A stretch of 64,000 bases of DNA from Candidatus Poribacteria bacterium (GTDB lineage Bacteria > Poribacteria > WGA-4E > WGA-3G). Positions within the stretch are counted from its first letter, which is position 1. Every line of letters starts with the position of its first letter. The position numbers were made by a program, and so were the translations under genes. Positions 3,473 through 55,900 of the stretch are shown here, in pieces. Under the pieces are notes generated by a model, which did not search any database, had not been told where the DNA came from, and saw nothing but the letters and a program-made list of their open reading frames with translations. The DNA is taken from contig JAPOZO010000088.1 in the NCBI GenBank assembly GCA_026706025.1, positions 35,669 through 99,668 on the forward strand, given 5' to 3'.

Positions 3473-3494
3473 TAGCGAGAGAATTTCTGTAAAT

Positions 3495-3521: not shown

Positions 3522-3577
3522 TGAAGTTGAGGCAACTCGTCTGTTTTTAGTTTTACAAAACCAAAGGAAAACAAGCG

Positions 3578-4385: not shown

Positions 4386-4400
4386 ATGACATTTGGTTGT

Positions 4401-5573: not shown

Positions 5574-6121
5574 TATTGACTCCTTGTCTGAAAGGGAAAT
5601 TGCGCTGCGACGACGAATCGGTCATCTGTTTCAGGCGATCGGTAGATAAGACTGATGGCATCCACCTCACATCGTATCGGTTGCCATTCGGTTTGGAGAC
5701 GCTGCTGTTGGGTCTGCAAGACGCGGTGTTGGAATTGTCCGACGGAAAGATGTGGGTGGAATCCGCCAGCAAATCGTGCTGTGTCGTCGTAGTCGGGAAG
5801 ATGCTGCAGCAATATGTTGTGTAACTTCACGATTTCGGTCGCCGGTTCAGGAACAAGAAACATCGTACACGACTTTCGGTGTTGGAAAGCATCAAAGCGA
5901 GCGAGTTCAATGGAAAAAGGCGGGACCTGTTGTGCGACTCCTGTGAGCGCGGGCATGATCTCTGCGAAATCGCGACGTGCTGCGAATGGATAGAGCAGCG
6001 TTATATGAGGCATCCATCGCTGGAAGTTTCGGTCGTGAATCTGTCGGATGGCTTGGATGGGTGACTGTACGGTCTCTGGTGGAATAAGAACAACGGCTGT
6101 GGTGTGCGTTTTGCTTGGCAT
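5573..6121 (-). CDS. 2H phosphoesterase superfamily protein (LigT / 2'-5' RNA ligase-like)
   Basis: Two H-x-T/S-x motifs (HITL and HLSV). It overlaps the neighbouring gene by 1 nt. Confidence 0.55.
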   Translation of the reverse strand: MPSKTHTTAVVLIPPETVQSPIQAIRQIHDRNFQRWMPHITLLYPFAARRDFAEIMPALTGVAQQVPPFSIELARFDAFQHRKSCTMFLVPEPATEIVKLHNILLQHLPDYDDTARFAGGFHPHLSVGQFQHRVLQTQQQRLQTEWQPIRCEVDAISLIYRSPETDDRFVVAAQFPFQTRSQ

Positions 6122-6130
6122 AAATGAAAT

Positions 6131-6172
6131 AATGGCTGTCAGCAGTCAGTAGTCAGCAATCAGCGACCAACA
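6131..6172. repeat. Heptanucleotide microsatellite (GTCAGCA/GTCAGTA/GTCAGCA...)
   Basis: Tandem 7-mers immediately 3' of the stop codon of the SDR gene 6160..6960. Confidence 0.6.
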
Positions 6173-6960
6173 GACATCCCCCATCGACCACCATCAACAT
6201 GTAGCGTCTGTCCCGTAATGTAAGAGGCATCGTCGCTAAGGAGGAAAGCGATGGCGGATGCGATCTCTTCGGGGCCGGCACGGCGTTTCATAATGCAGGA
6301 ATTGATCGGCGTTTCCTCTAATTCTTTCTTCCGAGCAGCAGGGTCGGGTGCTTTGCCGAAATGCATCTCCGTAACGATCCACCCTGGCGCAATCGCGTTG
6401 ACGCGGATGCCATATTCAACGAATTCATAAGCCATTGTTTTCGTGAGAGAGACCAATGCGGATTTAATTGCATCGTAGACCCACCCACCGGGCCTGCCGA
6501 GAAAACCGCCCTCTGATGAGAGATTGACGATAGCAGCACCTTCCTGTTTCAAAAGCGGTAAGAGATGTTGTGTGATCAGTACCCAACCTCGGAGACCGAT
6601 TTCGGTTTCGGGTTGCCAATTTCGGATCCATGCGCCGTCTTCTATTGTGCCAGAACGCGCGATAGCAGCGTTATTGACGAGGACATGAAGCGCGGAAAAC
6701 TTTTCGGTGACAGCACCTGCAGCGGCGATAACGCTTTCATCATCAGCAAGATCAACTTCTACAAAAAGTGCCTTCCCACCTGTTTCTTGGATTTCGGCGA
6801 CTGCCTTGTGCGCCATTTCGGCGTCGTTGTCAGCAATGATGACCTGTGCCCCTTCGGCTGCGAGACGGTTCGCCGTCGCCCTACCGATACCAGAAGCACC
6901 CCCGGTTATCAATGCGACTTTATCTGTAAAACGGATTGTTCCCCATGGATTTGTTTGCAT
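6160..6960 (-). CDS. SDR-family oxidoreductase
   Basis: TGGASGIGRA nucleotide-binding motif, NNAA, and a YxxxK-type active site region. Confidence 0.85.
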   Translation of the reverse strand: MQTNPWGTIRFTDKVALITGGASGIGRATANRLAAEGAQVIIADNDAEMAHKAVAEIQETGGKALFVEVDLADDESVIAAAGAVTEKFSALHVLVNNAAIARSGTIEDGAWIRNWQPETEIGLRGWVLITQHLLPLLKQEGAAIVNLSSEGGFLGRPGGWVYDAIKSALVSLTKTMAYEFVEYGIRVNAIAPGWIVTEMHFGKAPDPAARKKELEETPINSCIMKRRAGPEEIASAIAFLLSDDASYITGQTLHVDGGRWGMSVGR

Positions 6961-7072
6961 GTGTAGTTTCCTTTTATCTACCTGTCAGCGACCAGCCATC
7001 GGCTGTCAGAAATCGTGAGCAGTGCTCACTCCTACAATTGGGTTGTCAACAATTAGCGATCATCTGCCAAAA

Positions 7073-7122
7073 GTCGCGAGCACGGGGAAACACCCCAGCA
7101 AAAACACTCGCGCCTACAAGAG
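7073..7122. repeat. About 50-nt conserved structured motif (CGCGAGCACGGGGAAACACCCCAGCAAAAACACTCGCGCCTACAAGAG). A second copy lies at 52231..52282.
   Basis: Nested inverted repeats (CGCGAG/CTCGCG around GGGG-AAACA-CCCC) ending in CCTAC. The two copies are about 85% identical. Confidence 0.5.
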
Positions 7123-7136
7123 ATATAAGATTCTTT

Positions 7137-7928
7137 TTATACACCTGCGGCGAAGCCACCGTCAACGAGGAGAGAGGCACCCGTAATCCATTCTCCGTCG
7201 TCGGAAGCGAGGAAGACACAGGCACGTCCAATGTCTCTCGGCAGACCGAACCGCGGTAATGCAGTTTTTTCGAGTGCTTCATTGATCTGTTCTGGCGTGA
7301 GGTAGTCCTGAATTGCTGTTTCAATATAACCCGGACAGATGGCGTTGACAGTTATGCCGAATTGTCCGATTTCTAACGCTGTATCTCTGACCATGTTGAC
7401 GACAGCGGCTTTCGCTGGCGCATACGCAGGACCTGCACCACCGCCATAAGCGTGAACAGAGGCGATCTGGATGATTCTGCCAAATTTTGACTGTTTCAGA
7501 TGCGGGATTGCGAGTTTCGTCGCGACGAAAACGCCACGGAGATTAACACCAACGACTTGATCCCAATCGGCGATTGAGATATCCTGCGCGCCACCGGGGA
7601 TGTGGATACCGGCATTATTGACGAGAATGTCAAGTCCACCGAAGTGTTCGACGGTCTGCTGTATCGCCTCAGCGACTTGTGATGCGTCAGCGACATCAGT
7701 CTGAACGAATATCCCTTGTGCACCGAGTTTTTCGATTTCCGTGACGGTGGGTGTCGTTACATCGGTTTCATGATATTTGCCGCGGAGGGGTGCTTTCTGC
7801 TTATCTATAACGGCGACACGTGCACCCTCACGGGCGAATTCAAGTGCGATACCGCGCCCGATGCCTGAACTCCCACCAGTTACAATGCAGATGCGATCCT
7901 TGAGTAGCATGAGTATCTTTCTCTCCAA
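7137..7928 (-). CDS. SDR-family oxidoreductase (3-oxoacyl-ACP reductase-like)
   Basis: TGGSSGIGRGIA, NNAGI, and YAPAKAAV motifs. Confidence 0.85.
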   Translation of the reverse strand: MERKILMLLKDRICIVTGGSSGIGRGIALEFAREGARVAVIDKQKAPLRGKYHETDVTTPTVTEIEKLGAQGIFVQTDVADASQVAEAIQQTVEHFGGLDILVNNAGIHIPGGAQDISIADWDQVVGVNLRGVFVATKLAIPHLKQSKFGRIIQIASVHAYGGGAGPAYAPAKAAVVNMVRDTALEIGQFGITVNAICPGYIETAIQDYLTPEQINEALEKTALPRFGLPRDIGRACVFLASDDGEWITGASLLVDGGFAAGV

Positions 7929-7943
7929 AGCAAACGGACAGCG

Positions 7944-8270
7944 CTACGTAACAAAAACTCGCTGGTAGTTGGCTGTTTTGTCTGAAGGCTTAATATGAAT
8001 TTCAACCTTGCGGTTCAGTCTCTTGAGAATCATTAGCAACCGCTCCACGGTGAAATTAAAATCCATTTCCTTCAGGCGGGACACATCAGACGGATCGAGT
8101 CCAAAGCGTGCTTCTGCTTTTGCCGGGGTTAGTTTTTGCTCCTCAAGAAGATGATAGATTGCGAAGGCGAGGTCTACCCTTAATTGTTCGTATTCCGCTT
8201 CTTCCTCAGAGAAACCGATGTCCAAAAACACATTCCCAGAACTCTCCTCAATTTTGATTTCTTCACTCAT
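7944..8270 (-). CDS. higA: HTH XRE-family antitoxin (HigA-like)
   Basis: A small HTH protein (NVFLDIGF...LTPAKAEARFGLDPSDVSRL) encoded downstream of the Gp49-like toxin gene and overlapping it by 8 nt. Confidence 0.65.
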   Translation of the reverse strand: MSEEIKIEESSGNVFLDIGFSEEEAEYEQLRVDLAFAIYHLLEEQKLTPAKAEARFGLDPSDVSRLKEMDFNFTVERLLMILKRLNRKVEIHIKPSDKTANYQRVFVT

Positions 8271-8619
8271 TTTTCCCCTCCATCTCTTGCACTATTCTCA
8301 GGCGTTGTTTAATCAGGTCAATTTCTCTTTTGGGCGTGCTGATACCACGAGTAGATTTCTTCTGAAATACATGAAGTACATAGATGTTCTCGCCAATCTT
8401 AACAGTATAAACCGCACGGTAGGTGTTCGTATCGTAACGAGCGACAATCTCAAATACACCTGAACCTACTCCTATCAGAGGTTTGGCATTCCGATGTTTA
8501 CCTCCAATTTGAGCAATACGTAATGCCTCACCTACTGCATCTCGTGCGGGTTTGGGAAAACGCCGTACCCGGTCACGAGAATCTCCAACCCACCTCACAT
8601 CTTTCATCGATTGATCCAA
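8263..8619 (-). CDS. higB: Gp49-like (HigB-type RelE/ParE superfamily) toxin
   Basis: Pattern W.GDS...FP...........GVFE...Y..TYRAVY......IYVLHVFQKKS, characteristic of phage Gp49-like toxins. The toxin gene comes first, as in higBA. Confidence 0.65.
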   Translation of the reverse strand: MDQSMKDVRWVGDSRDRVRRFPKPARDAVGEALRIAQIGGKHRNAKPLIGVGSGVFEIVARYDTNTYRAVYTVKIGENIYVLHVFQKKSTRGISTPKREIDLIKQRLRIVQEMEGKNE

Positions 8620-8820
8620 AATTCTACCTCTTTTGTATTATACCGTATCTTCCAAAATCTTTACAACATTTTCAGGAATGCATCCCTCAAGTTGTAGTAA
8701 CTGTTGGCTTGCTTGACATCGCCTTCAAGCCCGTGGACAGCGAGGTTCATTTTGCAGAATCTGATAGTTTCGGCGACACGCTCAACGCCGCAAAACTGCA
8801 GCTACCAAGTAGATTAAGCA

Positions 8821-11800
8821 CTAAAAATAAGACCTACCGAGTGAATTCCCGGCACCGAATGCGTTGTAAGGTGTCCCCGCAGGTAATGTGCGGATGCCCC
8901 ACGTTTCCGTCGTTGCGTCATAACCGACACCCATCGAAACCGCAGGTTCTTGGATGAGGTTCACCTGGAACGTGAAGTCTTGACGGACATTGTCGTAAGG
9001 CGGCTCTCGTTTAATACCGATTCGACTCCAAGAAATTCGGAGATTCCAATCGTGTAGGTTACGTGTCATACTTAAACGTTGTTGATAAAATTGCCCATCA
9101 ATCGGATAATAGATGAGACTGGCATTAAATTCGAGGTTCCGGCTCAAACGGTAACGCCCAGTAGCCGTGATAGACCGCGAAGCACGTCTTGCGGTATGTC
9201 TCTTGCTAAAAGAACTCCCGATACTGACATTCCAAGACTGTCGGGTGTAACGGATGTTGGAACGGAATCCGACCATCTTGAACTGTTTTCCGTCATCTGG
9301 ATGCGGGTTCGGATCGTGTGTAAAACGGAATGTCATGTTAAGGTTTCGACTCGGCAGCGGGACGATTGTAAAATCGCTCTCAATAGGTTCAAACTGACGC
9401 TCATCTAAGGGATCAAATTCTGTGAAATCCGCGGTAAGGCGTGTATCAAAATAGAGGATCCGATGTGGCGATTGGCTCCGCCGAGTTTTGATCTCAATAC
9501 CTGTGTTAAAACTATAGGTAAGACGTTTTCGCTCATAGAAATAGGTGCTGGGACCGAACGGATAGAGGTTCTCATCTCTGTCAACAGCAGGTTGATAATC
9601 GTAACGGAGTGAGGACTGAATCTCGTGCCGTAATTTCCGTAGTCCCGGGACAAAACCGACGTTGTAGATGCGGAAGAGCGTATTTGTAGCCGATCCGTTA
9701 AAACTGAAAACGCTCCGAAAAATGTTCTTGTTTTCATCCTGGTCTCGGTCGTGCCAAACCGTATTTGAGTTGAGGTTAAGGCTCAGCTGCAACTCTCGTA
9801 AAGGCGTAATCAGAAGTGTTGATTGTTTGCGGACATCAAAACCGAGGTCCATTGTTTTCAGGAATACATCTCTCTCTTCCTCACCATCTTTATTCCGAAA
9901 AACCTCCCTAAAGAAGTTGCCGAGTTCAATATCAAGGTCAACACTTGTGCTTTCAAGCGTTGGAAACGAGAGCATTGAGAGGAACGGTTTCTCTGTTTCA
10001 AATTTTTCAGCAACCGTTAACATGCTGTCGTTGAGCGTCTCGAAGAGAGGGAACGCGCTGAGGCGCATCCGTGAAAAATTCACGGTTAATCGAGGAAGTT
10101 TCTGTAACGACCTCGTACCTTCACCCGTGAAATCGTGGATGTGCCGGATTTCCAGTCTACTTGTGATATCGCCAATAGTCTCTCGTGAGAACTTCAGATT
10201 TCCATTTGCATCAAGGTCTTCGAGATCAAAGGTTGATAAACCCGTCCCATAAGTAAGAATTGCAAAAGAGTTGAGTGTAGATTGCGCCGGGAGCTCGTAT
10301 TCTTCCTTATAACTCTGGGATCGAAGTTCCGTCCTGCCAGTGAAACTAATCGGCCTTCTACCTTCTTGACGGTTATCCCATGGCGTATAGATGGAATGTG
10401 TATGCGCCCATCGCGCAATTAGGTTGTTACCGGTTCGGACGGCACTCTGTCGTTGTCCAGAATAAACATCTTTAGCGTAGATATAGAAGTCGCCGCGATA
10501 GGTCCGCTTTCTATCGACTTTGATGAGCCGGAAAGATTTCTTGGTTTGAATAGGTCGTCTCCCCAAGTCGCCAGCATACAAACTCTGTGCTTCCGAGGCT
10601 ACCGGACTCGGGTCTTCCCACCGTCCACGGAATCCGTGTTTTCGATAGATTTTAAGTTCTTCTTCACCTTCTGCGTCCTCTCCTGCGTCCTCTTCTGCGT
10701 CTTCTCCTATGTCTCCTTCGGCAGTTAAGTTTTCTGCGTCCTCTCCTGTGTCTCCTTCGGTGATTAAGTCTTCAGGATCAGTTCCGTTTTGATTAGGAAC
10801 TGCACCGTCCTGCGTGTCCACCTCCACTTCGTTCTGCTCGGCACTCTGTGCGCTATCACCATCATCCGTTTCGTTCTGCTCAACATTCTGTCCATCATCC
10901 ATACCAGTGGTCTCAGCCTCTTGAACAGGAGCCTCGTCAGTGGGAGCAGTATCAGTTTCTTGTAGCTGAATATCCTCAGTAGTATCTTGCGGTGTTTTAT
11001 CCGTTTCAGTTCCTTCTTCAGTCTCTTCAGGTGCAGGATTCATTACGTCTTCGTAAAACGTCTCCCATTCCGCCTCAAATTCCGCTGCGATCACTTCAAA
11101 GGTAGGTGTCTCCTCTTTTCTGATTAATTGGAAGATATAGAGACCTTCAGGCATAGTAATAGGTCGGCGTTCAATAACATCCCCCGGTTTCTCTAAACGT
11201 CTAACAGAGGATTGCCAAGAAGACTCCATCTCGTTTAGTGGCAGTCCTTTGCCTTCATTAACTTCGGAGAGTGCCGGTTGCGCTACATCAGCAAAATCAT
11301 CGGAAAGACTCTCCATCATGTCCGAGGATATTTGCACGAGTTGTTCAAAGGGTTCACCTTCGTGGGCGCGTTGGAGCATATCATCCGCTAATACGCGTAG
11401 CGCGTCCTTTGTATCACCGCTGGCGGTAATAGCGATATCAATACGGCGGAGTTTAACCTCACGTTCACCATAGACATCAACAATCTGATCGGCTTTGAGG
11501 ATGTGAAATGCGGATTCGGTTTGGACGATAGCACTAATTTCGCCTTCTGGTAATGTGAAGGCAGCTGCTTCCAAAGTGGGATCAAGTATCGGTTCACCGT
11601 CCTCGTCGGTTTCGCCGAGGGCAAGGAAACCGAGGTCGCCGCCCTCATAACGGGTATCCGAGTGGTCAGAACTACGCTGCGCGAGTTCCGCAAAGTCTGC
11701 GTCTTCTTCTTGAAGCTGCTTGAGAAGTTCTTCCGCCTGCTCTCTGGCACGGGCAATATCGGCATCCGTAATTTTATATTCCAGAAAAATCTGCTTCAAC

Positions 11801-14305: not shown

Positions 14306-14469
14306 GTACCTGCTCCTTTATAGAGGTATTCAGTTGTCAGTTATCAGTTAAGAGGGTTCTGATTAAACCATATCCCTCTTGTAACTAACAACTGACAACT
14401 GACAACTACTGACAACTGAAAGGTTTTTCATGCCTCGCAGTGAGAGAAAACCGAACTGACAACTGACAA
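14306..14469. repeat. Composite intergenic element: CTGACAA heptamer arrays flanking a hairpin and a conserved 35-nt core (GAAAGGTTTTTCATGCCTCGCAGTGAGAGAAAACCG). A second copy lies at 54188..54376.
   Basis: The same architecture and a near-identical core occur at both loci. Both abut the stop codon of the upstream minus-strand gene. Confidence 0.55.
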
Positions 14470-15516
14470 CTATTCTTCTGGTTCTGTCGCCGCGGGTGAT
14501 TCCTCTGATTCCGATTCTGCAGCCGGTTCTTCGGGTGCTGCCTCTGGAATCCGGTCAATATAGGTTTTGACCTCGGCACGTTCGCGGAGTTTGCTGACCC
14601 ATTCCGTCATAAGGGCTTCGCGCTTTTCACGGTCAGCCTTTCTCACCACACTCTTGTGGACATCCTCGTCCTCAAAGGGTTTTTGGTATTCATCGCGAGC
14701 CTCATCCTTACGGAACATCATGAAGTATTTCTGACCTTGGACTTCGACTGCAATAACGTCATCGTGGACTTGACCGATCTCTGCAGAGAACGCTGCATCT
14801 AAGAAAGGTTCGGTTCCCGACGGATAAGAATCACGACTGAAGTAGTCGGTATCACCAGGAGAGGATGCATTCGCGCCAGGCCCGACGAGTTCGCCTCGGT
14901 CAGAGAGTTCTTGTGCGGCCTCGGCAATGTCTTTACCGCCTTTGATTTCTGCGGAAACTTCATCAGCCCGTTCCTTATTTATGAGGGTGATACACAAAAG
15001 CTTGACTTGCGCCGGACGGACGTATTCCGCTTTGTGCGCTTCATAGTACGCCATATAATCAGCGTCAGACAAGGTGAGCTTATCGTCAACTTCTTGGGTG
15101 GTAATTCTCTTAACCATCAACTCGTGAAGATAGTCCTGAACCTTCTTGAGAATTTCCGGGTCTTCGTTGAGCTTATGGTCGCGAGCGAGATTGAGAATTA
15201 AGCGGCTCTCCGCCATAAGGAGCATGTAAGTCTCCAACCCCTCTTTGTCCGCATACTGCCGCTGTTTGTATTCTGGCAGTTCGCTAATCTCCTGCATCAT
15301 TTCCTCAAGGGTGATGCGCTGTTTACCGTTCCACTCAAATTCAGCAATAACTGTTCCGTCGCCCCAACTATAAAAGACGGGATGTGTAGCAAGAATCCCG
15401 AGTAAAAGTAAAGGGACGACCGGCAGTCGAAGCTGGCAATCTATTCTACCCATGGATTGGGTAATTCTTGTGAGCATTTTCAATTCTAAACTCCTTTTCT
15501 TATCGCTATCAACCAT
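14470..15516 (-). CDS. SurA/PpiD-like periplasmic chaperone paralog with a degenerate parvulin and an acidic C-tail
   Basis: SurA N-domain-like region plus a single degenerate parvulin-like segment. It is a paralog of the gene at 15652..16620. Confidence 0.5.
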   Translation of the reverse strand: MVDSDKKRSLELKMLTRITQSMGRIDCQLRLPVVPLLLLGILATHPVFYSWGDGTVIAEFEWNGKQRITLEEMMQEISELPEYKQRQYADKEGLETYMLLMAESRLILNLARDHKLNEDPEILKKVQDYLHELMVKRITTQEVDDKLTLSDADYMAYYEAHKAEYVRPAQVKLLCITLINKERADEVSAEIKGGKDIAEAAQELSDRGELVGPGANASSPGDTDYFSRDSYPSGTEPFLDAAFSAEIGQVHDDVIAVEVQGQKYFMMFRKDEARDEYQKPFEDEDVHKSVVRKADREKREALMTEWVSKLRERAEVKTYIDRIPEAAPEEPAAESESEESPAATEPEE

Positions 15517-15651
15517 CGGAAACCATTAGCAATCAGCAAAAAGGGTTCTCTGTAACAATTTACAGCGTCCTACGAGTACGCAAGATAGGATCTATTGTTA
15601 CAGACTTACGACTTCACTGACTGCTGATGACTGATGACTGATGGCTAATTG

Positions 15652-37068: not shown

Positions 37069-39330
37069 ATGAAACAATTTTTTGTGCTGGCAGGTATTGC
37101 CATAGTGCTTCTCAGTCATTTGGGGTGTTCTTCTGATGAAGAGCAGACACAAGTTGAGAACCCTGCGGTAATCGATGAAGCATCAGCATTTAGTGGCGCG
37201 CCGCTCTTAGGCGATATTGTCCTCGAAAATATGTATGAGGACGAAGCGCGACAACTAACGGATAAGACACCCGTTCAAATCGTCACAGTGCTTGAAGGAA
37301 CAAACAGAATTACGCTTGAGGCACAGTTCCGTGGCGTTCGAGATTTAGGATTCGGGTTCCCACTCTACGAATTTGAATTGACAGATAAACTCGCTGAGTC
37401 AATAGGGGGTATTTCACAAGGTATGTCGGGAAGTCCGGTCGGTCCCCCAGGGCGCATTATGGGCGCGCTCGCTTATGGCACCAGTTTTGCCTCTGCACCA
37501 TATCGGTTCTTGGCGACATCCATTGATGCAATGGAAAACGCAATTAACCACCAAACATTTGGTGAGATATTTGATGCGGAACGTGCTGCTGCTGCACCGG
37601 GTGGTATCCAAGCAGCATATACGCCTGTGAAAACGCCTCTCACGATCTCCGGGATACAACCGCACAGACTTGAACAACTTTCATCACATCTGGAAGGCTC
37701 TCACTTTGACTTTGTCCAATTGTTTGCCGATATTAATGATGCACCGGCAGCACCGCCAACGGTGACAACAAGACTCGCCGCTGGTGATATGATCGGTGTT
37801 GCAGTATCGACAGGTGATGTCGTCAACTCTATCGGTTTCGGTACGGTGACACAGGTTTACGACGACGGTACATTTATAGCGTTCGGCCATCCGATGATTT
37901 ATGGCGGTCAATCGGCATTACCCGTCTATAGAGCCGTCACCAACGGTATTGTTACCAGCTTGGCGATATCTTTTAAATCTGTATCCGCTTACGGGAATCC
38001 AATCGGAACAATTACCAAAGACCTCCTGCCAGGAATCGTGGGTGAACTCGGTACGGTCCCATCAATGATTCCGGTAAAGGTTACTTACCAAGCAGGTAAC
38101 GGTCCCGTAGTGGAAAAAAATCACAAGGTGGCCTATGGTCAGGAATTGTTCCTACCAATCGTTGCAGCCCTTACGATGGATTCCATCCGTCAGGAAATAA
38201 GTTCTTCCACAGTGGACGGGACTGTCACACTCCGTTTCAAAGAGACGGAAACCGTTTACACAGAATCGTTTCGGAGTGCCTCTCCGGCTGCGTTTATTGA
38301 TGTGCTGCTAAACGTTGATCGGATTATCCACGCTTTCTCAGATACGCTCTCGAACAGCGCGGGGGAAGCTACGTTGACAGATGTGTCAATTTCTATCCAT
38401 GACAAACCCCAAATTATGTTAGCGGAGCTGCATGAAGTTATCGTTCCTGAAGAGGGAATCACCCCTGGCGAAGATCTCACGGTTTCGGTCGTGCTACTTC
38501 CACACTGGAGTGCTGCAGGGAACGAACGGACAATCCAGCGAGAGGTCACGCTTGAGGTACCGGAGGATTTCCCTGCTGGTCCTGCGCTTCTTAGCGTTGC
38601 TTCTGAGAACCCGTTCGGTCCTCCCAATCCGTTCTTTGGACCCGATTTCTTTTTCTTTGGACCAGAGGAAGAACCTAAACCACTACCTGAGAATCTGGAC
38701 GAACTCATCAAAAAGATGGAAGAAGAGCAGATTGACCCAAGCTTAATCACAATAACGCTTGAGTCGTTGGGACCGCCGCCAGGCGCGTTACCACCAGATC
38801 TTTTACCACCAGATCTTTTACCACCAGATCTTTTACCACCAGAAGGTCTACCGTTACCTGAAGATGGTGAAATGCCTGAAGACGATGAAGCACCTGAAGA
38901 TGGTGAAATGCCTGAAGACGGTGAAGCACCTGAAGATGGTGAGATGCCTGAAGACGATGAAGCACCTGAAGACGGTGAGATGCCTGAAGATGGTGAAGCA
39001 CCTGAAGACGGTGAGATGCCTGAAGATGGTGAGATGCCTGAAGATGGTGAAATGCCACCAGAGTTAATACTGCCTGAAGGTTTTCCACCATTAGGTGGAT
39101 TACCATTCCCACCGGATTTCGGACCTGCACCGACTGTCGAAATCACAATTAATATCGACGGGTTTATTGTGATTGGTCTCAAAGATGCCTTCGTCACAAT
39201 AGGAAGTGAAGAAATGGTAGATGGCATGCTTCCTGGAGAAATCGTTGATGGTATGCTACCAGAAGAAATTGGGGACCCCGTGGAACCGGTAGAACCTGCG
39301 GAGCCTGCGGAACCAGCGGAAGAGGAATAA
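37069..39330 (+). CDS. Secreted lipoprotein with a serine-protease-like GMSGSPV motif and a C-terminal acidic Pro/Glu tandem-repeat tail
   Basis: LSHLGCSS lipobox. GMSGSPV (V8/SpoIVB-like Ser motif) and FGHP. Tail repeats PPDLL x3 and PEDGEMPEDDEA/PEDGEAPEDGEM x~10. Confidence 0.45.
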   Translation: MKQFFVLAGIAIVLLSHLGCSSDEEQTQVENPAVIDEASAFSGAPLLGDIVLENMYEDEARQLTDKTPVQIVTVLEGTNRITLEAQFRGVRDLGFGFPLYEFELTDKLAESIGGISQGMSGSPVGPPGRIMGALAYGTSFASAPYRFLATSIDAMENAINHQTFGEIFDAERAAAAPGGIQAAYTPVKTPLTISGIQPHRLEQLSSHLEGSHFDFVQLFADINDAPAAPPTVTTRLAAGDMIGVAVSTGDVVNSIGFGTVTQVYDDGTFIAFGHPMIYGGQSALPVYRAVTNGIVTSLAISFKSVSAYGNPIGTITKDLLPGIVGELGTVPSMIPVKVTYQAGNGPVVEKNHKVAYGQELFLPIVAALTMDSIRQEISSSTVDGTVTLRFKETETVYTESFRSASPAAFIDVLLNVDRIIHAFSDTLSNSAGEATLTDVSISIHDKPQIMLAELHEVIVPEEGITPGEDLTVSVVLLPHWSAAGNERTIQREVTLEVPEDFPAGPALLSVASENPFGPPNPFFGPDFFFFGPEEEPKPLPENLDELIKKMEEEQIDPSLITITLESLGPPPGALPPDLLPPDLLPPDLLPPEGLPLPEDGEMPEDDEAPEDGEMPEDGEAPEDGEMPEDDEAPEDGEMPEDGEAPEDGEMPEDGEMPEDGEMPPELILPEGFPPLGGLPFPPDFGPAPTVEITINIDGFIVIGLKDAFVTIGSEEMVDGMLPGEIVDGMLPEEIGDPVEPVEPAEPAEPAEEE
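38790..39050. repeat. Coding tandem repeat (12-aa PEDGEMPEDDEA-type units)
   Basis: Periodic DNA, cctgaagacggtgagatgcctgaagatggtgaagca... Confidence 0.6.
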
Positions 39331-45529: not shown

Positions 45530-46983
45530 ATCTCCCTTTTAGGGGTTGTCAGTTATCAGTTTTCAGTCATCAGAGGAACGGCTTTCGATTTCCATCGGTT
45601 TCCGTCAGCAATCAGGACATTTACATCAGGATCCGGAGAACCTTCCTACAGGAAAACTAAATCGTGTTCCTCTATTTTACCTGACACGAATTTATTTGTC
45701 ATCTGTTTTATTATAGTTATCAGTTTTCAGTATTCCATGAAACAGAAATGTGATTCATCAAAGTACCTCTTAACCGAGTACTGAGTACTGAAAACTGCGT
45801 ACTATTTGGTCTAAACTGTGAATTATGTGATCCAAGGATTGGGGATAGCGGGTGACAATTAGGACGGGAAGGATGAAATAAGGTATTGTCTGAATCGCGG
45901 ATTATCGCGGATGACACGGATTTCGCGAATTTTAAGACATCTTTCTATCCAATGATCGTTTCTCTATCGCGGTTGAAACCCTTCTTACAAAAACATAAGA
46001 GCCGCCAATGTCAAAACTTTACACACCTTTGACTGATAGCCGACTGCTGATTGTTGACCGCCCTTTCCCAATTCCCTTCAAACGAGAAAGCACAGAGGCA
46101 TTCAGTTTTCCATTCTTTGCTCTAATTTTCACCGAGACCCAGTAGGTACAGTTTTGCGGTGTACCATAGGTGTCTATTTAGGAAAAAACCACATCGTCCC
46201 GTAGGTGTTTTTGCTTGGGGTGTTTTTGATAGGGTATTTCTGCGTATTGCTTGGGGTCTTTGATAGGGGTATTTGATAGGGTGTTTCTGCGGATTTCTGC
46301 GGATTTCCCCAAGGTTGAACGGGGTTAAGAAAGCAGATGTTGGTCTGCCAATACCCTCGAATCCAACCTGTCGTCCTATACAGCCAAAAACGCAGTGAAA
46401 CCCAACTTCAGACCCACAGGTGCCCATAAACCGCAAAGGTGTTGGGTTTCTCTCGGTTTTCTGTTTGGCGTGCCATCTCTGGAGAAGGCTTAGGCTTGGG
46501 TTAGTTTCCAGCATTTTAGAAATATCCGTTCAACCCAACCTACAGGAGAATACTAACGCTTTACACTTTTGACTTCTGAGCTGCGATTTCCCTGATTGCC
46601 ATGATTCCCATGATAAGACAACCCATCACAAGAAAATGAATACTGAAAACCCAGGCATGACGACTCAGCAGTTCCGCAGGAACCTCCTCTCTGTAGAAAC
46701 TTCAACACCACAATCAGCATCTTATTTTTCCTCAGATACCTTATTACAAAAATCACAAAAATCACAGAAATCACAGTTCAGACTTAATAAGACGGGAATG
46801 GCACGAAAAATCCCTAAATTGACACTTATGGTGCGGTTTCCTAACCGTACCGGTTTACAATGTCTCATTAACCCTAATATCCACTATAAGTAGAGTATTG
46901 GGGTTGGAAACCCTCCTACAAAAACCGGGAGTCGTTTCGGATTATAACTTGATTTATGAGCGGAAGTAACGTATAATTCAATC
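45530..46983. other. 1.45-kb non-coding region filled with degenerate repeats (REP variants, CAGT heptamers, GGGGTSTTTGATAGGG units, CACAAAAAT x3)
   Basis: No convincing ORF. The candidate ORFs here have junk-like composition. Confidence 0.5.
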
Positions 46984-48675
46984 GTGCCAATGCAACCCCT
47001 AAATGCTAATAATGGAGACCGAAAAAACGTGAACTACCGCGATATTCTACAAAACATTAGACTTGCCTTCCCGCAACCGACGTCTGACCCGATACATGAT
47101 TCCTATTTCGTACATTCCATCATGCGTGCACTGGACCAGGTGGACGCGCTCAAAACACATCTGCCGATGCTCGGGAGTATCGTCTCTGGTGACTTTAAAA
47201 AAGCGCGACAGACAGCGTTACCGGATGCCATGTCCTCGGTTGAAGATGTCACGGCTGAACTCATCGGTTATCTCCGAGGGATGACGATTTTCGGGCATCC
47301 TCGGACACAGCAGAACGTTATCCCGCCGACAACAATACCAAGCGTGATTGGTGTGCTTATTGCTTCGCTATACAACCCCAATATCACCTGGGATGAATAC
47401 AGTCAACTGGTGGCGTTGGCTGAAGTTGAAGTCGTCGGGATGACCGCGAACATGATTGGATATGACGCCGAACAGGCAAGTGGTGTGTTTACCTTTGGCG
47501 GTACCGGAACGACACTCTACGGGGTGAAACTCGGTTTAGAAAAGGCGTGCCCGGGAACGATGCAAAACGGGACACCCGAAGAGGCGGTTGTGTTCGTATC
47601 AGACGCAGGCCACTATTGTGCAACGAACATTGTCGGTTGGCTCGGCATCGGAACGAACAATCTGGTTACAATCCCAACGACGCATGACAACGAAATTGAC
47701 CTCGCCCAATTGGAACAAGCGGTTCGAGAAGCACTCACAAACGGGAAAAAGATTGCTGCCATCATCGCGACATTGGGCACTACGGATGCCTTCGGATTAG
47801 ACGATTTAGAGAGCATTGTGGCGTTACGAGACAACCTCGTCGATGAATTCCAACTCGACTACCGACCGCACGTTCACGCCGACGCAGTTATCGGATGGGC
47901 ATGGTCGGTATTTAACGACTACGATCTTGAGGGAAATCCCTTAGAATTCCGACCGCGCACCGTTCGGGCTTTGGCGGGCACGTGCAGACGCATACGGCAC
48001 CTCTCCCTCGCGGATTCTATCGGGATCGACTTTCATAAGACGGGCTTTACCCCTTATATCTCCAGTCTCGTCCTCGTCAAAAATCGAGAGGACTTCAATT
48101 TGGTGAAGCGTCATCCGGAACAGATGCCGTATCTCTATCACTTCGGGGAACACCGCCCCGGCATGTATACGCTTGAAACCTCCAGAGCCGGGACGGGGCC
48201 TCTTGCAGCCCTTGCGAATCTCCGGTTGTTCGGGGAACAAGGCTTGCAAGCCATCATCGGACACATCGTTGAAATGACACAACTCCTGCGGGAACACCTC
48301 GAAGGGCATGCGGGTACCACCGTGCTGAACCGAGAGAACTTTGGAACCGTCACCCTCTTCCGCGCCTATCCTGAGACGGTGGATACCTTCTCAATCAAGC
48401 AACAGGAATTTGAGGATGCTGCCTATCATGAGAGTTTGATCACCCATAACGCCTATAATCGAGAAATTTTCCAATACGTGCATTCGGAGGCGATGGAGGG
48501 CAGGGGCGTGGTCATTTCCACAACCGACTGTTACCGACACACCGCTTATGGCGAACCGATTGTCGCGTTGAAATCGTACATCCTATCGCCGTTTGTCGAT
48601 GAAGCCGATGTCAAAACTGTTGTTGATAAGGTTTTGGAGGCACGGGAGAAGGTCGGGTGTAGCGCGGACTCTTAG
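46984..48675 (+). CDS. PLP-dependent decarboxylase family protein (group II-like)
   Basis: DFHKTGFTPYISSLVLVK resembles the HK(w) PLP-lysine motif of group II decarboxylases. Tentative. Confidence 0.5.
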   Translation: MPMQPLNANNGDRKNVNYRDILQNIRLAFPQPTSDPIHDSYFVHSIMRALDQVDALKTHLPMLGSIVSGDFKKARQTALPDAMSSVEDVTAELIGYLRGMTIFGHPRTQQNVIPPTTIPSVIGVLIASLYNPNITWDEYSQLVALAEVEVVGMTANMIGYDAEQASGVFTFGGTGTTLYGVKLGLEKACPGTMQNGTPEEAVVFVSDAGHYCATNIVGWLGIGTNNLVTIPTTHDNEIDLAQLEQAVREALTNGKKIAAIIATLGTTDAFGLDDLESIVALRDNLVDEFQLDYRPHVHADAVIGWAWSVFNDYDLEGNPLEFRPRTVRALAGTCRRIRHLSLADSIGIDFHKTGFTPYISSLVLVKNREDFNLVKRHPEQMPYLYHFGEHRPGMYTLETSRAGTGPLAALANLRLFGEQGLQAIIGHIVEMTQLLREHLEGHAGTTVLNRENFGTVTLFRAYPETVDTFSIKQQEFEDAAYHESLITHNAYNREIFQYVHSEAMEGRGVVISTTDCYRHTAYGEPIVALKSYILSPFVDEADVKTVVDKVLEAREKVGCSADS

Positions 48676-48828
48676 TTTGTATTCATTAGGATTTATACAC
48701 GACCGAAATATTCTTGATGGAAAAAATGGAAGGATGGAAGAATGGAAGGACTTCCCGCACACTTCTAATCTTCTTGTTTTCCAATCCTGCAAGCAAACGA
48801 ACGCATTTTACGTCCGTTCTGTTGCATT

Positions 48829-49104
48829 TCAAACGACGATTGTCTGGGGATCCGACGTTACCTCACCGACAGCAGGGACTTCAATGCGTCTGGTGCAGGC
48901 ACCACAGAGCGCGTAGTAACGAACTGAATCCTCAGAAAGATCAATAACACCTGCGACGGCGCGCTGGAGTGCCTCGTACTGTGTCCGGGTCAGGTGCGCT
49001 TCAAACACACTGTATTGGACGCGGGTGCCGAACCCTTTGAGGACTTTGGCGAGTTGACCGCGTCGCCGGTCATCCGGAATATCATAAGAAATAACATAGA
49101 ACAT
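48829..49104 (-). CDS. cas2: CRISPR-associated endoribonuclease Cas2 (start at the internal MFYVISYDI; the listed ORF has a spurious 60-aa upstream extension)
   Basis: MFYVISYDIPDDRRRGQLAKVLKGFGTRVQYSVFE...DSVRYYALC is a classic Cas2 sequence. Confidence 0.8.
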   Translation of the reverse strand: MFYVISYDIPDDRRRGQLAKVLKGFGTRVQYSVFEAHLTRTQYEALQRAVAGVIDLSEDSVRYYALCGACTRRIEVPAVGEVTSDPQTIVV

Positions 49105-49110
49105 TGAAAA

Positions 49111-49335
49111 TTGCCTTTTATGGAATCCATTATGCCTGAATTTATCAGTTCCCCAATATTTTTGATAATTGCAGTGATACTCGCCGTTTTTCTCGTGATT
49201 GCTATTGTGAAGGGCGCGATTCGTCTCTTTATCTGGATCGCTATTATTGCCGTGATTCTCCTCGGGGTCGGTATTCTGACACAAGAGGAGATGCGCAATT
49301 GGTTTGAGAATCTCCTCAAGACAGTAACGGGATAG
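49111..49335 (+). CDS. Small two-TM membrane protein (hypothetical). The start is uncertain (TTG at 49111, ATG at 49120 or 49132).
   Basis: Two clear hydrophobic helices. It sits between cas2 and the cas6-like gene on the opposite strand. Confidence 0.35.
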   Translation: MPFMESIMPEFISSPIFLIIAVILAVFLVIAIVKGAIRLFIWIAIIAVILLGVGILTQEEMRNWFENLLKTVTG

Positions 49336-49345
49336 ACGTTGCGAC

Positions 49346-49828
49346 TCAGTTTATCGGCGGCGGGTTGTCTCCCAATCCACAGATGCGGTACTGTCCAAAC
49401 CCAAACGCCGTATGATGCCCGATGTGCAGATACTCACCAAGATAGATAAACGGTAGAAACGGCTCTAATTCCCCTGAAAAATGGATTTTCCCAATAAACC
49501 CACCCATCGGCACGAATTTCTCCGCTCGGTCAGAGTACCGATCCTTCCTAAGCCAATTCAAGCGAGAATCATGACTGACAGCAGTGGAAGCCGCAATTAA
49601 GCCGTGAGCATCCACATCCAAATCCTCGCCACAATGGAAATAACTCAGGAACCGGATCCGCCGCAGCAAATTGCGGATGAGGTGTTCAAACGTTAGTTTG
49701 CCTGTCCACTTGCCATCGACTTTGATACTGGTAGGTGTGATAAATTCCAGTTCAATCGTATCGGTGGCATGCGGCGCAGCGGGCATCACATCTGCCAACC
49801 CAAGCATCAGTCCATCATCCGTCAGCAT
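49346..49828 (-). CDS. cas6: Cas6-like protein, probably N-terminally truncated or degenerate. The frame stays open without an ATG up to about 49930.
   Basis: C-terminal glycine-rich loop LHIGHHTAFGFGQYRI matches the Cas6 signature (sGiG..t.GfG). An upstream GGFIGKIHFSG segment is also present. Confidence 0.5.
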   Translation of the reverse strand: MLTDDGLMLGLADVMPAAPHATDTIELEFITPTSIKVDGKWTGKLTFEHLIRNLLRRIRFLSYFHCGEDLDVDAHGLIAASTAVSHDSRLNWLRKDRYSDRAEKFVPMGGFIGKIHFSGELEPFLPFIYLGEYLHIGHHTAFGFGQYRICGLGDNPPPIN

Positions 49829-50246
49829 CCCAGTTTCTGCTGTGTAAATCGTCTGAGATTGATGGCTGTCATGGGCGGGTAAACTCTCGACTTTATCGAG
49901 TTGACACTGCTCGCGTTTGTTTTGGAGTCCGATTTAAAAATAATTAATCCTATATCTAATTTTACACCATACAACATTTTAAAATTAAAAGAAAATTATA
50001 TCCATAAAACCGCTAATTTCGCTTGAAAATACCTTTGCAGGATCTCAGGGTGTGATACAGACGCTGATTTGTTAGCGGTTTGGCACGAGACTTGGTAAAA
50101 TTTGATTTTTAGGTTGGCAATTTGGGTTGAATCTGTTATCATTTCTGTAGTATGCGTAGCATGCGCTGTTTCGAGAACATAGAACTGGACCGCTAAGAAC
50201 CGATAATGCCATGATTAGAACAGTCGTGAAATAAAAAGGAACACCA

Positions 50247-51293
50247 ATGAGAAATTGTGAAACACGCTTGCTTGTGATTTTATTGTGCTGTGTGTGTATC
50301 TGCGGTTGTGAAAGGGGGCAGCACGTCGTTAAACCCCCCATAGCAGTTGACTTAATACCCGATCCCAATTTAGCGGCTGCTGTGCGTGAGGCACTCGGTT
50401 TGACAACAGATGCCCCACTGACGGCAGAGGTGTTGCAGAACCTGGGAACACTTAGGGCTCATAACCTCCAGATTGTAGATCTCACGGGTTTAGAATACGC
50501 AGTGAATCTGACAAAACTGCACCTGACCGAGAACCAGATATCTGATGTTTCACCACTGGAAAATCTCAAAAACCTGACAGAACTGTACCTCGCTGGGAAC
50601 CAGTTATCCGATATTTCACCACTATTCGATATTTCACCGCTGGAAAACCTCACAAACTTGACAGAACTGGGCCTCGGCGGGAACCAGTTATCCGATATTT
50701 CACTACTGGAAAATCTCACAAACTTGACAGAACTGGGCCTCGCTGGGAACCAGTTATCCGATATTTCACCATTGGAAAATCTCACAAATCTAAGAGGACT
50801 GCACCTCGGTGGGAACCAGTTATCCGATATTTCACCGCTGGAAAATCTCACAAATCTAAGACAACTGGGCCTCGGCGGGAACCAGTTATCCGATATTTCA
50901 CCACTGGAAAATCTCACAAATCTAAGACAACTGCTCCTGAACGAGAACCAGTTATCCGATATTTCACCACTGGAGAATCTCACAAATCTAAGAGGACTGC
51001 ACCTCGGCGGGAACCAGTTATCCGATATTTCACTACTGGAAAATCTCACAAACTTGACAGAACTGGGCCTCGGTGGGAACCAGTTATCCGATATTTCACC
51101 GCTGGAAAATCTCACAAATCTGATAAATCTGTGGCTGTCCTATAACCAGATATCGGACATCGTCCCCCTCGCGGCGAATAGAGGCTTGGGCGACAGGGAC
51201 ACCCTCTGGTTGAAAGGCAACCCTTTGGACGAGGCTGCCATTCGTACACATATTCCTACACTCCAAGAGAGAGGTGTTAGGGTAGACCTGTAA
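50247..51293 (+). CDS. Internalin-type leucine-rich-repeat protein (about 12 x 22-aa LRRs), a paralog of the LRR module in the gene at 25367..27844
   Basis: Repeats LENLTNLTELGLGGNQLSDISP. The pre-LRR motif DPNLAAAVREALGL is shared with the metzincin-LRR gene. N-terminal hydrophobic signal. Confidence 0.8.
   Translation: MRNCETRLLVILLCCVCICGCERGQHVVKPPIAVDLIPDPNLAAAVREALGLTTDAPLTAEVLQNLGTLRAHNLQIVDLTGLEYAVNLTKLHLTENQISDVSPLENLKNLTELYLAGNQLSDISPLFDISPLENLTNLTELGLGGNQLSDISLLENLTNLTELGLAGNQLSDISPLENLTNLRGLHLGGNQLSDISPLENLTNLRQLGLGGNQLSDISPLENLTNLRQLLLNENQLSDISPLENLTNLRGLHLGGNQLSDISLLENLTNLTELGLGGNQLSDISPLENLTNLINLWLSYNQISDIVPLAANRGLGDRDTLWLKGNPLDEAAIRTHIPTLQERGVRVDL
50520..51150. repeat. Near-identical 66-bp coding tandem repeats (LRR units)
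   Basis: cactggaaaatctcacaaatctaaga...gggaaccagttatccgatatttcac is repeated with few substitutions. Confidence 0.7.
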
Positions 51294-54187: not shown

Positions 54188-54376
54188 GGGTTAATAGTTA
54201 TCAGTCTTTATAGTTATCAGTTAAAAGAGGGTTGGGACAATTCAAGAGGTCTCTTTACTGAAAACTGAAAGATTTTTCATGCCTCGCAGTGAGAGAAAAT
54301 CGCTCTGATAACTGAAAACCACTGACCACTGAAAGATTTTTTTCGGAGAAAAAATCGTACTGACAACTGACAACTA
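54188..54376. repeat. Second copy of the composite heptamer, hairpin and 35-nt core element (GAAAGATTTTTCATGCCTCGCAGTGAGAGAAAATCG)
   Basis: Same architecture as 14306..14469. It ends in CTGACAACTGACAACTATT, which overlaps the stop codon of the upstream gene. Confidence 0.55.
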
Positions 54377-55450: not shown

Positions 55451-55560
55451 CTCCGTCTCCTCGGTTCGGCAAACGATGGGGCGTACTGGATTTGAACCAG
55501 TGACTTCTACCGTGTGAAGGTAGCGCTCGTACCCCTGAGCTAACGCCCCACGTAAGAGTA

Positions 55561-55633
55561 TGGGCCCACTAGGACTCGAACCTAGGACCAACCGGTTATG
55601 AGCCGGTGGCTCTGACCACTGAGCTATGGGCCC
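55561..55633 (-). tRNA. tRNA with a CAT anticodon (Met elongator, or Ile2 if lysidinylated)
   Basis: Cloverleaf GGGCCCA/TGGGCCC acceptor stem, D-arm AGCTCAGTGGTCAGAGC, anticodon stem-loop ACCGG-CTCATAA-CCGGT, T-arm CTAGGTTCGAGTCCTAG. CCA is not encoded. Confidence 0.8.
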
Positions 55634-55794: not shown

Positions 55795-55900
55795 TAGATG
55801 GTTCGTAGTGGCACAATTCTGCGGCGTACTCGCCCAAATGCGAAGTGCATTATTGCGCCTTGGATTGCCGTGCGATGAATCGCACGACTACGAACCGGAT
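55795..55900. repeat. About 100-nt palindromic intergenic element (GGTTCGTAGTG...GCCGTGCGATGAATCGCACGACTACGAACC). A second copy lies at 61855..61960.
   Basis: Outer inverted repeat GGTTCGTAGTG/CACTACGAACC and inner GTGCGAT/ATCGCAC are shared by both copies. Confidence 0.5.

Follow-up and report, generated by a model that had tools for sequence, protein, structure and literature searches.

A type III CRISPR-Cas locus with RT-associated adaptation, probably reduced to a relic, in Poribacteria

Partial or degenerate CRISPR-Cas loci, such as solo cas genes and orphan repeats, are routinely encountered in comparative surveys. The closest described systems to the locus considered here are the type III-A (Csm) loci with RT-associated adaptation, for example that of Marinomonas mediterranea MMB-1 with its Cas6-RT-Cas1 and Cas2 (PDB 6DD5); further structures for comparison are those of the Cas6-RT-Cas1--Cas2 complex (PDB 7KFT and 7KFU). 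Compared with such systems, the window analyzed here, a stretch of 64,000 nucleotides from a Candidatus Poribacteria contig, is left with cas2, half of cas6 and one repeat only (Table 1). The locus is best understood, at a probability of roughly 0.78, as what remains of a type III CRISPR-Cas system, most likely III-A/Csm-like, whose adaptation module was associated with a reverse transcriptase.

Table 1. Coordinates of the features of the locus (positions within the window)
Feature	Position	Strand	Description
Orphan CRISPR repeat ATGCCTCTGTGCTTTCTCGTTTGAAGGGAATTGGGAA	46065-46101	-	Counterpart of the degenerate terminal repeat seen in the relatives' arrays
Non-coding remnant	46313-46548	-	84.7% identity (blastn) to L011 20205-20438
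PLP-dependent decarboxylase gene	46984-48675	+	Convergent with cas2; PF00282
153-bp spacer, decarboxylase to cas2	48676-48828		In relatives, a SWIM-domain gene of ~475 aa lies here
cas2	48829-49104	-	Intact 91-aa ORF, stop codon included
Small 67-aa ORF	49132-49335	+	Convergent with cas6; MPEF...WFENLLK; conserved neighbour
5'-truncated cas6	49346-49933	-	Codons 134-328 of the 328-aa ortholog, 3' 60% of the gene
Deletion junction	49934-49936	-	In-frame TAA from former upstream intergenic DNA, fused to cas6 codon 134
Retained intergenic DNA	49937-50246		Former operon-upstream region; blastn to L011 and L008

The remaining cas genes and their constraint

The cas2 product aligns with PF09827 over profile positions 1-73 of 74 (Pfam; E 1.6e-23, 83.1 bits, cutoff 23.8) and with TIGR01573 (60.2 bits, cutoff 24.5), and the PADLOC Cas2 models match it as well. 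The solved Cas2 TT1823 of Thermus thermophilus (PDB 1ZPW) is a further match (E 1.6e-15), in which LYAVAYDIPDD aligns with the N-terminal motif MFYVISYDIPDD of the window protein, including the aspartate of the Y-D-I/V signature. The protein resembles the Cas2 family in its 91 residues, its YDIPDD motif and its alignment across the whole domain, yet its gene does not adjoin cas1 or an array, both of which are absent beside it in the window and in 10-kb extensions of the window, whereas cas2 in the orthologous loci of relatives does associate with cas1 and a CRISPR array. Its identity to the L014 ortholog reaches 89%, and at positions conserved in at least 95% of 40 orthologs it shows no deviation. 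An in-frame N-terminal extension of cas2 (a 151-aa ORF starting at 49284) was rejected, because the orthologs begin at the MFYV / VFYV position.

The frame of the cas6 remnant is open as far as the junction, while its first in-frame ATG, at 49828, defines a 160-aa ORF (49346-49828, minus strand) that corresponds approximately to the C-terminal RRM domain with its G-rich loop. This ORF is a real Cas6 fragment without its N-terminus, because it matches PF10040 over positions 1-89 of 89 (E 2e-20), spans only positions 156-294 of 296 in the PADLOC Cas6 model PDLC01477 (2-295 in a full-length relative) and falls below the cutoff of TIGR01877 (35.5 bits, cutoff 58.65). With the full-length ortholog as query, tblastn matches residues 134-328 of 328, and the glycine-rich loop motif HIGHHTAFGFGQY is invariant among orthologs. 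Full-length Cas6 homologs measure 322-328 aa, with identities of up to 88-91%. An AF2 model of the full-length ortholog has a Cas6 fold, the top PDB match being 6DD5 (E 1.7e-13), namely the Cas6 domain of M. mediterranea Cas6-RT-Cas1. Mapped on this model, the deletion takes strand 6-16, helix 29-41, strands 87-90 and 104-112, and helix 113-131, all of which belong to the N-terminal domain. The window thereby lacks the full two-domain architecture of Cas6, the N-terminal RRM domain (codons 1-133) having been deleted. In Thermus thermophilus Cas6 (PDB 4C97) the catalytic histidine sits in the N-terminal domain. Public databases name the truncated ORF as a full Cas6 endoribonuclease, which calls for caution in annotation.

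The original prediction of a textbook Cas2, made from the letters alone, is borne out by scores above the curated cutoffs of both profiles, as is that of a cas6-like ORF with a G-rich loop some 240 bp away (the gap is 241 bp and the PF10040 match covers the loop-bearing fragment) and without a proper N-terminus (codons 1-133 are lost, and only 156-294 of PDLC01477 is matched). The statement that nothing cas-like lies between the two genes holds insofar as the gap contains no cas gene, but the gap does contain the small 67-aa ORF. Its product has two hydrophobic stretches, which are probably transmembrane; in 41 of 61 related loci the protein sequence is conserved, the ORF lying immediately downstream of cas6. 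It matches no Pfam, NCBIfam or PADLOC family and is not a known cas gene. No inverted repeats that could account for the inversion of the small ORF in L014 were found around it.

Both the cas2 and the cas6-fragment ORFs are uninterrupted. The pairwise dN/dS of cas2 against its closest ortholog is 0.13 (NG86), as in intact pairs. For the cas6 fragment, the ratio of non-synonymous to synonymous substitutions on the window branch is 10:13, compared with 3:8, 3:9 and 3:17 on three intact sister branches. Expressed as quotients, and on small counts, the window branch gives 0.77 for the cas6 fragment (neutral ~3.4) and 1.25 for cas2 (neutral ~3.0); the excess over the sister branches, which is based on few substitutions, is not significant for either (Fisher p = 0.086 and 0.45, respectively). 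The only deviations of the cas6 fragment at otherwise conserved sites are G8E and E35G, both upstream of the first ATG. These substitution patterns hint mildly that constraint on the cas6 fragment has relaxed. Neutral evolution is not apparent from the counts: the ratios lie below the neutral values, and the excess over the sisters is non-significant. This leaves two possibilities, a recent deletion or the persistence of some constraint.

The ancestral locus and the extent of its loss

Comparison with 61 related Poribacteria loci (designated here by L numbers) revealed complete counterparts of the locus at the same chromosomal site. In such related genomes, a type III effector operon is followed by cas6 (328 aa), the small membrane ORF, cas2, a SWIM-domain gene, the PLP-decarboxylase, RT, cas1 and a CRISPR array of 37-nt repeats ending in ATTGAAAC. 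The effector part of L008 comprises csm2, csm3, csm5, cas10, csm4 and a CARF-HEPN gene before cas6, after which come the small ORF, cas2, SWIM, decarboxylase, RT and cas1, with two arrays flanking the locus. In L011 the corresponding order is cas10 (HD), csm2, csm3, csm4, csm5, a CARF gene (APE2256 family), a CARF-PD-(D/E)xK gene and cas6. L014 carries the closest alleles of cas6, cas2 and the decarboxylase, yet beside a different, multi-RAMP effector module.

In blastn alignments with L011, the closest relative, window positions 49936-50905 correspond to L011 971-1 (91%) and 49130-49933 to L011 10804-10001 (90%); because both flanks align in this manner, L011 972-10000 (9,029 bp) is missing from the window, and the comparison with L008 agrees, with L008 1806-10399 missing. 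The ~9.0 kb that is gone relative to L011 holds cas10, csm2-5, two CARF genes and the 5' end of cas6. The breakpoints can be placed to within 3 bp: homology of the cas6 frame extends as far as the junction, beyond which lies DNA found upstream of the effector operon in relatives, where the counterpart of the retained intergenic DNA is situated between an LRR gene and the operon. The junction shows no microhomology or flanking repeats of note, and a promoter scan of the region returned a minus-strand promoter-like match at 50004-49976, the number of matches not being above chance. The comparison with the relatives shows that the locus in the window derives by deletion from a complete type III locus whose adaptation module was RT-associated, and the proposal of a remnant left by deletion of the interference and adaptation core is supported by the cas6 homology that ends at the junction in operon-upstream DNA. 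The lost effector was most likely of the III-A/Csm-like subtype, to judge from the left flank common to L011 and L008.

Much of the adaptation side of the locus has been lost as well. In relatives, decarboxylase, RT and cas1 all stand between cas2 and the array; at the matching place in the window, past the decarboxylase gene as seen from cas2, a single terminal repeat survives together with its trailer. The repeat was detected as a single match with 2 mismatches, the relatives' repeat serving as pattern, and 0 of 100 shuffled sequences matched. A homologous array trailer adjoins it and reaches ~46030, and repeat and trailer together align with the terminal repeat and trailer of L021, L014, L032, L039, L045 and L064. 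With one copy only, the window falls short of the two or more spaced direct repeats that make an array, and no spaced-repeat array was found in it by TRF, repeat search or Rfam. For processing of a cognate repeat RNA by Cas6, this one degenerate repeat is all that is left. The original prediction of no CRISPR-like spaced repeats was therefore sound as regards an array but overlooked this single orphan repeat. The two stretches in which it had placed a possible degenerate repeat, namely the 153-bp spacer and 49830-50246, gave no match to the relatives' repeat at up to 3 mismatches.

The decarboxylase had been thought to occupy the place of the array. It is indeed convergent with cas2, but it is a conserved, locus-embedded gene in ~20 relatives and does not replace an array; its orthologs share 91-96% protein identity, and it lies between cas2/SWIM and RT-cas1 in L008, L010-L012, L014, L015, L020 and L021. 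No remnant of the SWIM gene is detectable in the 153-bp spacer, where low-complexity GGAAGG matches are all that was found. The non-coding remnant is homologous to the stretch immediately 3' of RT in L011; RT itself is missing from the window.

Searches for other cas genes were uniformly negative, in agreement with the claim that array, cas1 and effector genes are absent. With the relatives' proteins as queries, tblastn found no homologs of cas1, cas10, csm, RT or SWIM in the window. The combination of Cas10 with Csm/Cmr RAMP proteins expected of a type III effector was likewise missing, the III-A queries of L008 and L011 and the multi-RAMP queries of L014 all being unmatched in the window. 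A permissive tblastn (E up to 5) for coding remnants of cas10, csm, SWIM, RT and cas1 in the intergenic stretches yielded noise only. RT (RVT_1) and Cas1, present in ~30 relatives, are absent beside Cas2 and Cas6 in the window. Pfam searches of ORFs of at least 220 aa at 1-35 kb and precomputed Pfam assignments for ~39-60 kb revealed no other cas genes, and the annotation of k141_54188, a 168-kb contig of the same strain in ERZ27276941, lists none in the 10 kb past each window end. In total, ~84 kb of the source genome contains no further cas gene and no array.

Decay of the locus and the possible retention of Cas2

The ancestral order would have been effector operon, cas6, small membrane ORF, cas2, SWIM gene, PLP-decarboxylase, RT, cas1, leader and array. 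A single deletion of ~9 kb, probably by illegitimate recombination, then removed the effector operon, the CARF ancillary genes and cas6 codons 1-133, and at least three further losses took the SWIM gene, RT, and cas1 with the leader and the array body, the terminal repeat being spared. The notion that faulty assembly or binning produced the present arrangement, or that it is a primary state to which relatives later added genes, is effectively refuted. The identical junction recurs across the sampled population in seven contigs (99.9-100% identity) drawn from six assemblies and two collections (ENA and Logan), and is therefore no assembly artefact. Homology of the cas6 frame runs right to the junction, where a stop codon from foreign intergenic DNA ends the frame, a degenerate terminal repeat and trailer remain, and cas6 is of full length in 57 of the 61 relatives; no point in support of such an artefact or primary state was found.

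A different possibility is that Cas2, perhaps together with the C-terminal RNA-binding domain of Cas6, works in trans with a second, intact locus and is kept by selection. Such a second system is conceivable, because six related genomes (OZ242325.1, OZ251518.1, CAXXUA01, CAXXCS01, JAPPNJ01 and JAJDXV01) hold two cas6 loci each, and the intact Cas2 ORF, its conserved sites without deviation and a dN/dS like that of intact orthologs accord with it. Weighing against it are the absence of any other cas gene or array from the ~84 kb of source genome, the presence of an own cas2 in complete loci of relatives as a rule (39 of 61 loci have the gene), substitution counts too small to show selection, and a Cas6 fragment devoid of its N-terminal domain, so that cooperation in trans is unlikely. 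Cas2 and VapD have a common ferredoxin-like fold, and nuclease activities have been reported for Cas2. Selection for a role outside canonical CRISPR immunity, be it as a stand-alone nuclease, a toxin-like or VapD-like protein or a regulatory module, maintained independently of CRISPR, has a distinctly smaller chance of being correct. The intact ORF and conserved residues are the one point in its favor, against which no partner gene, new domain or lineage-specific change points to a new function; the window Cas2 falls within the CRISPR-linked orthologous family, as its similarity to the L014 protein illustrates, and the eroded loci L055, L064, L034 and L035 have dispensed with cas2 altogether. 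The partners of such a non-canonical Cas2 may include the 160-aa Cas6 C-terminal RNA-binding domain and the 67-aa membrane ORF.

Relic status thus remains the preferred reading, whereby cas2 and the 160-aa cas6 fragment most likely persist as relics not yet overtaken by decay, the function of the locus has probably been lost and the event would be recent. Since it has no interference complex, integrase, spacers or Cas6 N-terminal domain, the remnant on its own would be unable to provide immunity. Across the phylum the locus is often eroded, and the place on the chromosome at which it lies is a hot spot for the turnover of CRISPR-Cas systems in Poribacteria, which bears on the balance of defence versus cost in these sponge symbionts.

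Relation to known CRISPR-Cas systems

The orthologous loci share with RT-associated type III-A systems the possession of cas10, csm2-5, CARF effectors, RT, cas1, cas2 and 37-nt repeats, and their Cas6 family finds its best match, by both sequence profile and fold, in the Cas6 domain of the MMB-1 fusion protein. In Poribacteria, in contrast to MMB-1, cas6, RT and cas1 are separate, unfused genes, with a SWIM-domain gene placed among them and, in many genomes, a decarboxylase too. Literature searches yielded nothing specific on type III loci of Poribacteria or on SWIM genes beside CRISPR-associated RTs.

The locus represents an ordinary case of defence-locus decay in a sponge-symbiont Poribacteria lineage. 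It offers a well-resolved example of CRISPR-Cas loss through a few clean deletions rather than decay by point mutation, and its wider significance is small. It is like other degenerate loci in its missing effector and adaptation genes, its truncated cas gene, the lack of a functional array and its origin by deletion; what sets it apart is that close relatives allow both its ancestral state and its breakpoints to be recovered to the base, and it is otherwise in no way unusual.

The intact locus in related Poribacteria

The complete form of the locus is carried by L008, a 6.1-Mb Poribacteria contig, in the order CRISPR array, csm2, two RAMP genes, cas10, csm4, a CARF-HEPN gene, cas6 (328 aa), a small oppositely oriented ORF, cas2 (91 aa), a SWIM-domain gene (475 aa), a convergent PLP-decarboxylase gene, a transposase gene, RT, cas1 and a second array. 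When one genome per GTDB species was scanned, 60 more loci emerged, all labelled Poribacteria except for one Gammaproteobacteria bin and one uncultured bacterium. According to tblastn searches with proteins of L008 and the related loci L011 and L014, the block conserved across the loci comprises cas6, the small ORF, cas2, the SWIM gene, (the decarboxylase gene), RT, cas1 and the array, while the effector modules ahead of it vary by genome, some being III-A-like and others multi-RAMP/Cmr3-like. The relatives' arrays have a common 37-nt repeat with the core CTTTCCCGTTTGAAGGGAATTGAAAC.

The SWIM gene (L008 11810-13237; L014 11176-12618) encodes about 475 aa, comprising a SWIM zinc finger and a C-terminus with weak similarity to DUF6880, and in about 30 of the 61 loci its place is between cas2 and RT. 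It occurs as two alleles, about 50% identical, which co-vary with the cas2 allele; it shows a weak PADLOC match to the candidate PDC-S62, and may represent an accessory component of RT-linked adaptation modules that has yet to be described. The 67-aa ORF which separates cas6 from cas2 in the window codes for two hydrophobic, probably transmembrane stretches. Its protein is conserved immediately 3' of cas6 in 41 of the 61 Poribacteria loci, among them loci that have lost cas2, and it belongs to no Pfam, NCBIfam or PADLOC family; in L014 this segment is inverted. A short palindromic repeat element with the core CGTAGTAGGGCAATTCATTGCCCGTT, resembling REP or MITE elements, is scattered in intergenic DNA of the relatives' CRISPR loci (L008 11266-11368 and 18259-18321; L011 13708-14832 and 20438-20547), and in the window a related copy is separated by about 160 bp from two tRNA genes.

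Features of the remnant locus and other elements in the window
Feature	Position	Strand	Remarks
cas2	48829-49104	-	91 aa, begins MFYVISYDIPDDRRR
cas6 fragment ORF	49346-49828	-	160 aa, 241 bp upstream of cas2
67-aa ORF	49132-49335	+	MPEFISSPIFLII...WFENLLKTVTG
Site of SWIM gene in relatives	48676-48828		153 bp between cas2 and decarboxylase
Decarboxylase gene	46984-48675	+	convergent with cas2
Non-coding DNA	45530-46983		1.45 kb
RT-flanking match	46313-46548		85% to DNA just 3' of RT in L011
Shared piece	45886-45937		50 bp, common to several relatives
Orphan CRISPR repeat	46065-46101	-	single copy, ATGCCTCTGTGCTTTCTCGTTTGAAGGGAATTGGGAA
LRR protein gene	50247-51293	+	
LRR protein gene	25367-27844	-	
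LRR tandem repeats	50505-51123		near-perfect, 66 bp
Heptamer tandem sites	6138-6164, 14330-14471, 15618-15643, 45545-45573, 54359-54375		
CGTAGTAGGGCAATTCATTGCCCGTT-core copy	55795-55896		
Two tRNA genes	55477-55633		
Coding tandem repeat	38788-39056		18/36-bp period, with a 15-bp repeat ahead of it
753-aa ORF	37069-39330		contains the coding tandem repeat

Loss of the effector operon and truncation of cas6

The original prediction of a decayed locus with cas2 and a cas6-like gene proved accurate overall, the profile searches recovering both proteins and the window containing no spaced repeats. The identity of Cas2 is borne out by Pfam CRISPR_Cas2 (E 1.6e-23; 83 bits, cutoff 23.8), the NCBIfam equivalog TIGR01573 (60 bits, cutoff 24.5), many PADLOC Cas2 models, and an alignment over the whole domain with the solved Cas2 TT1823 (PDB 1ZPW, E 1.6e-15). 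The cas2 DNA is 87% identical to that of L014 and only 72% to that of L011, whereas the flanking cas6 and decarboxylase genes are about 90% identical to both, which suggests that the cas2 (and SWIM) segment may have undergone allelic exchange between lineages.

The proposal that the Cas6 ORF lacks a proper N-terminus also held. The C-terminal domain PF10040 matches the 160-aa ORF at E 2e-20, yet the full-length equivalog TIGR01877 stays below its cutoff (35.5 vs 58.65 bits; model positions 76-200 only), and only positions 156-294 of the 296-position PADLOC model are covered, compared with 2-295 in a full-length relative. Almost all of its 329 homologs in a large protein collection are 322-328 aa long with an extra N-terminal domain; those named are Candidatus Poribacteria. 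The frame has no stop as far as 49933, where a TAA at 49936-49934 bounds it, and the alignment with the homologs reaches its very first codon and takes in the 35 codons that precede the first ATG.

For a full-length ortholog, AlphaFold modelling (pLDDT 72, pTM 0.73) gives a Cas6 fold with two RRMs. The best-matching PDB entry is 6DD5, in which Cas6 is a domain of the Cas6-RT-Cas1 fusion of M. mediterranea (E 1.7e-13), also retrieved by a sequence profile search, followed by Thermus and Streptococcus Cas6. In this model the breakpoint falls directly after helix 113-131, which is deleted together with strand 6-16, helix 29-41 and strands 87-90 and 104-112. The internal Met which starts the 160-aa ORF corresponds to residue 169 of the ortholog, and the ORF, already named "Cas6" in public databases (P0004), consists in essence of the C-terminal RRM, including the G-rich loop.

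The breakpoints are mapped against the closest relative, L011 (chromosome OZ241378.1). Window positions 49936-50905, comprising intergenic DNA and the start of a leucine-rich-repeat (LRR) gene, correspond to L011 971-1 (91%), and 49130-49933 to L011 10804-10001 (90%), so that the window lacks 9,029 bp of L011 (972-10000). Pfam and PADLOC assign to this stretch HD-domain cas10, csm2, csm3, csm4, csm5, a CARF protein (APE2256 family), a CARF-PD-(D/E)xK protein and cas6 codons 1-133; comparison with L008 gives the same picture, with 1806-10399 missing. The junction reads ...TTATTTTTAA|ATCGGACTCC..., in which the TTATTTTTAA side continues the upstream intergenic DNA and the ATCGGACTCC side is cas6 from codon 134 on, with no microhomology of note. 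The LRR gene at 50247-51293 borders the deleted locus, and its position next to the locus is the same in L011; the window codes for two LRR proteins, their genes containing 66-bp tandem repeats.

The collapsed array and erosion across the phylum

No remnant of the SWIM gene is detectable in the 153-bp spacer between cas2 and the decarboxylase gene. The latter had been taken to occupy the place of the array, a view that must be abandoned: it is a conserved gene and an integral part of the locus. Beyond it, where the relatives have RT, cas1, leader and array, the window contains non-coding DNA with an RT-flanking match, a piece common to several relatives and one orphan repeat. The earlier statement that no array is present is correct as to spaced repeats, of which there are none anywhere in the window, but it overlooked this single copy. 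The window yields no other match to the repeat, and 100 shuffles yielded no match at all. The copy has a degenerate 3' end (ATTGGGAA in place of ATTGAAAC), like the last array repeat in L014 and two other relatives (L021, L032), and the downstream trailer (CAGTCGGCTATCAGT...) is homologous to the relatives' trailer; all that is left of the array, therefore, is its terminal repeat. The remainder of the window and the 10 kb past each end (168-kb contig, same strain) contain no cas gene and no further repeat, and an Rfam scan of the window detects two tRNAs only.

Tandem heptamers (AACTGAC, CTGATGA, GTCAGCA, GTTATCA) recur in intergenic regions of the window, and the trailer of the relatives' arrays consists of similar CAGT/CAGC-rich motifs. 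The coding tandem repeat in the 753-aa ORF specifies a P-E-D-G-E-M-rich stretch of low complexity.

Erosion at this site is common in the phylum, with many independent states across the Poribacteria loci L010-L069. Four loci (L055, L064, L034, L035) keep full-length cas6 and have no cas2, RT or cas1; cas1 fragments occur in L047, L037, L044 and L054; single leftover repeats are found in L059, L060 and L064, in L060 together with a truncated cas6.

Fate of the remnant

By itself the locus cannot function as a CRISPR-Cas system, since it has no effector complex, Cas1, RT or spacers, and its Cas6 has no N-terminal domain. It is most probably a decaying relic (probability about 0.78). That the arrangement is an artefact or the primary state is scarcely credible: seven contigs from six assemblies in the ENA and Logan collections match the window over this region at 99.9-100% identity, six of them (L001-L004, L006 and L007) spanning the cas6 junction, and the deletion junction is real.

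Pairwise dN/dS (NG86) is 0.13 for cas2 against its closest ortholog, L014, and 0.09-0.13 for the cas6 fragment against the related loci L014, L010 and L011, whose intact cas6 genes give 0.06-0.08 against one another. Branch-unique N:S counts for the cas6 fragment are 10:13 in the window and 3:8, 3:9, 3:17 and 8:7 on sister branches, and for cas2 5:4 on the window branch, with neutral expectations of about 3.4 and 3.0, respectively; window and sister branches do not differ significantly (p = 0.086 and 0.45). At positions at least 95% conserved, Cas2 has no deviation and the Cas6 fragment two (G8E, E35G), both upstream of the first ATG. These substitution patterns are in keeping with a deletion that took place recently by comparison with the divergence from the nearest sequenced relatives, and are compatible with continued constraint as well. 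Use of Cas2 in trans by a second locus, in line with the two cas6 loci in six related assemblies, is unlikely, and its recruitment to a new, non-CRISPR role is less probable still. 

Partial, degenerate CRISPR-Cas loci are a well-known phenomenon, and the locus in the window is one of them, a correct but ordinary finding; a literature search returned nothing specific on these Poribacteria loci. The ancestral system falls among the known type III loci whose adaptation is RT-assisted, and its Cas6 is of the same kind as that of Marinomonas, in which Cas6 is fused to RT-Cas1.
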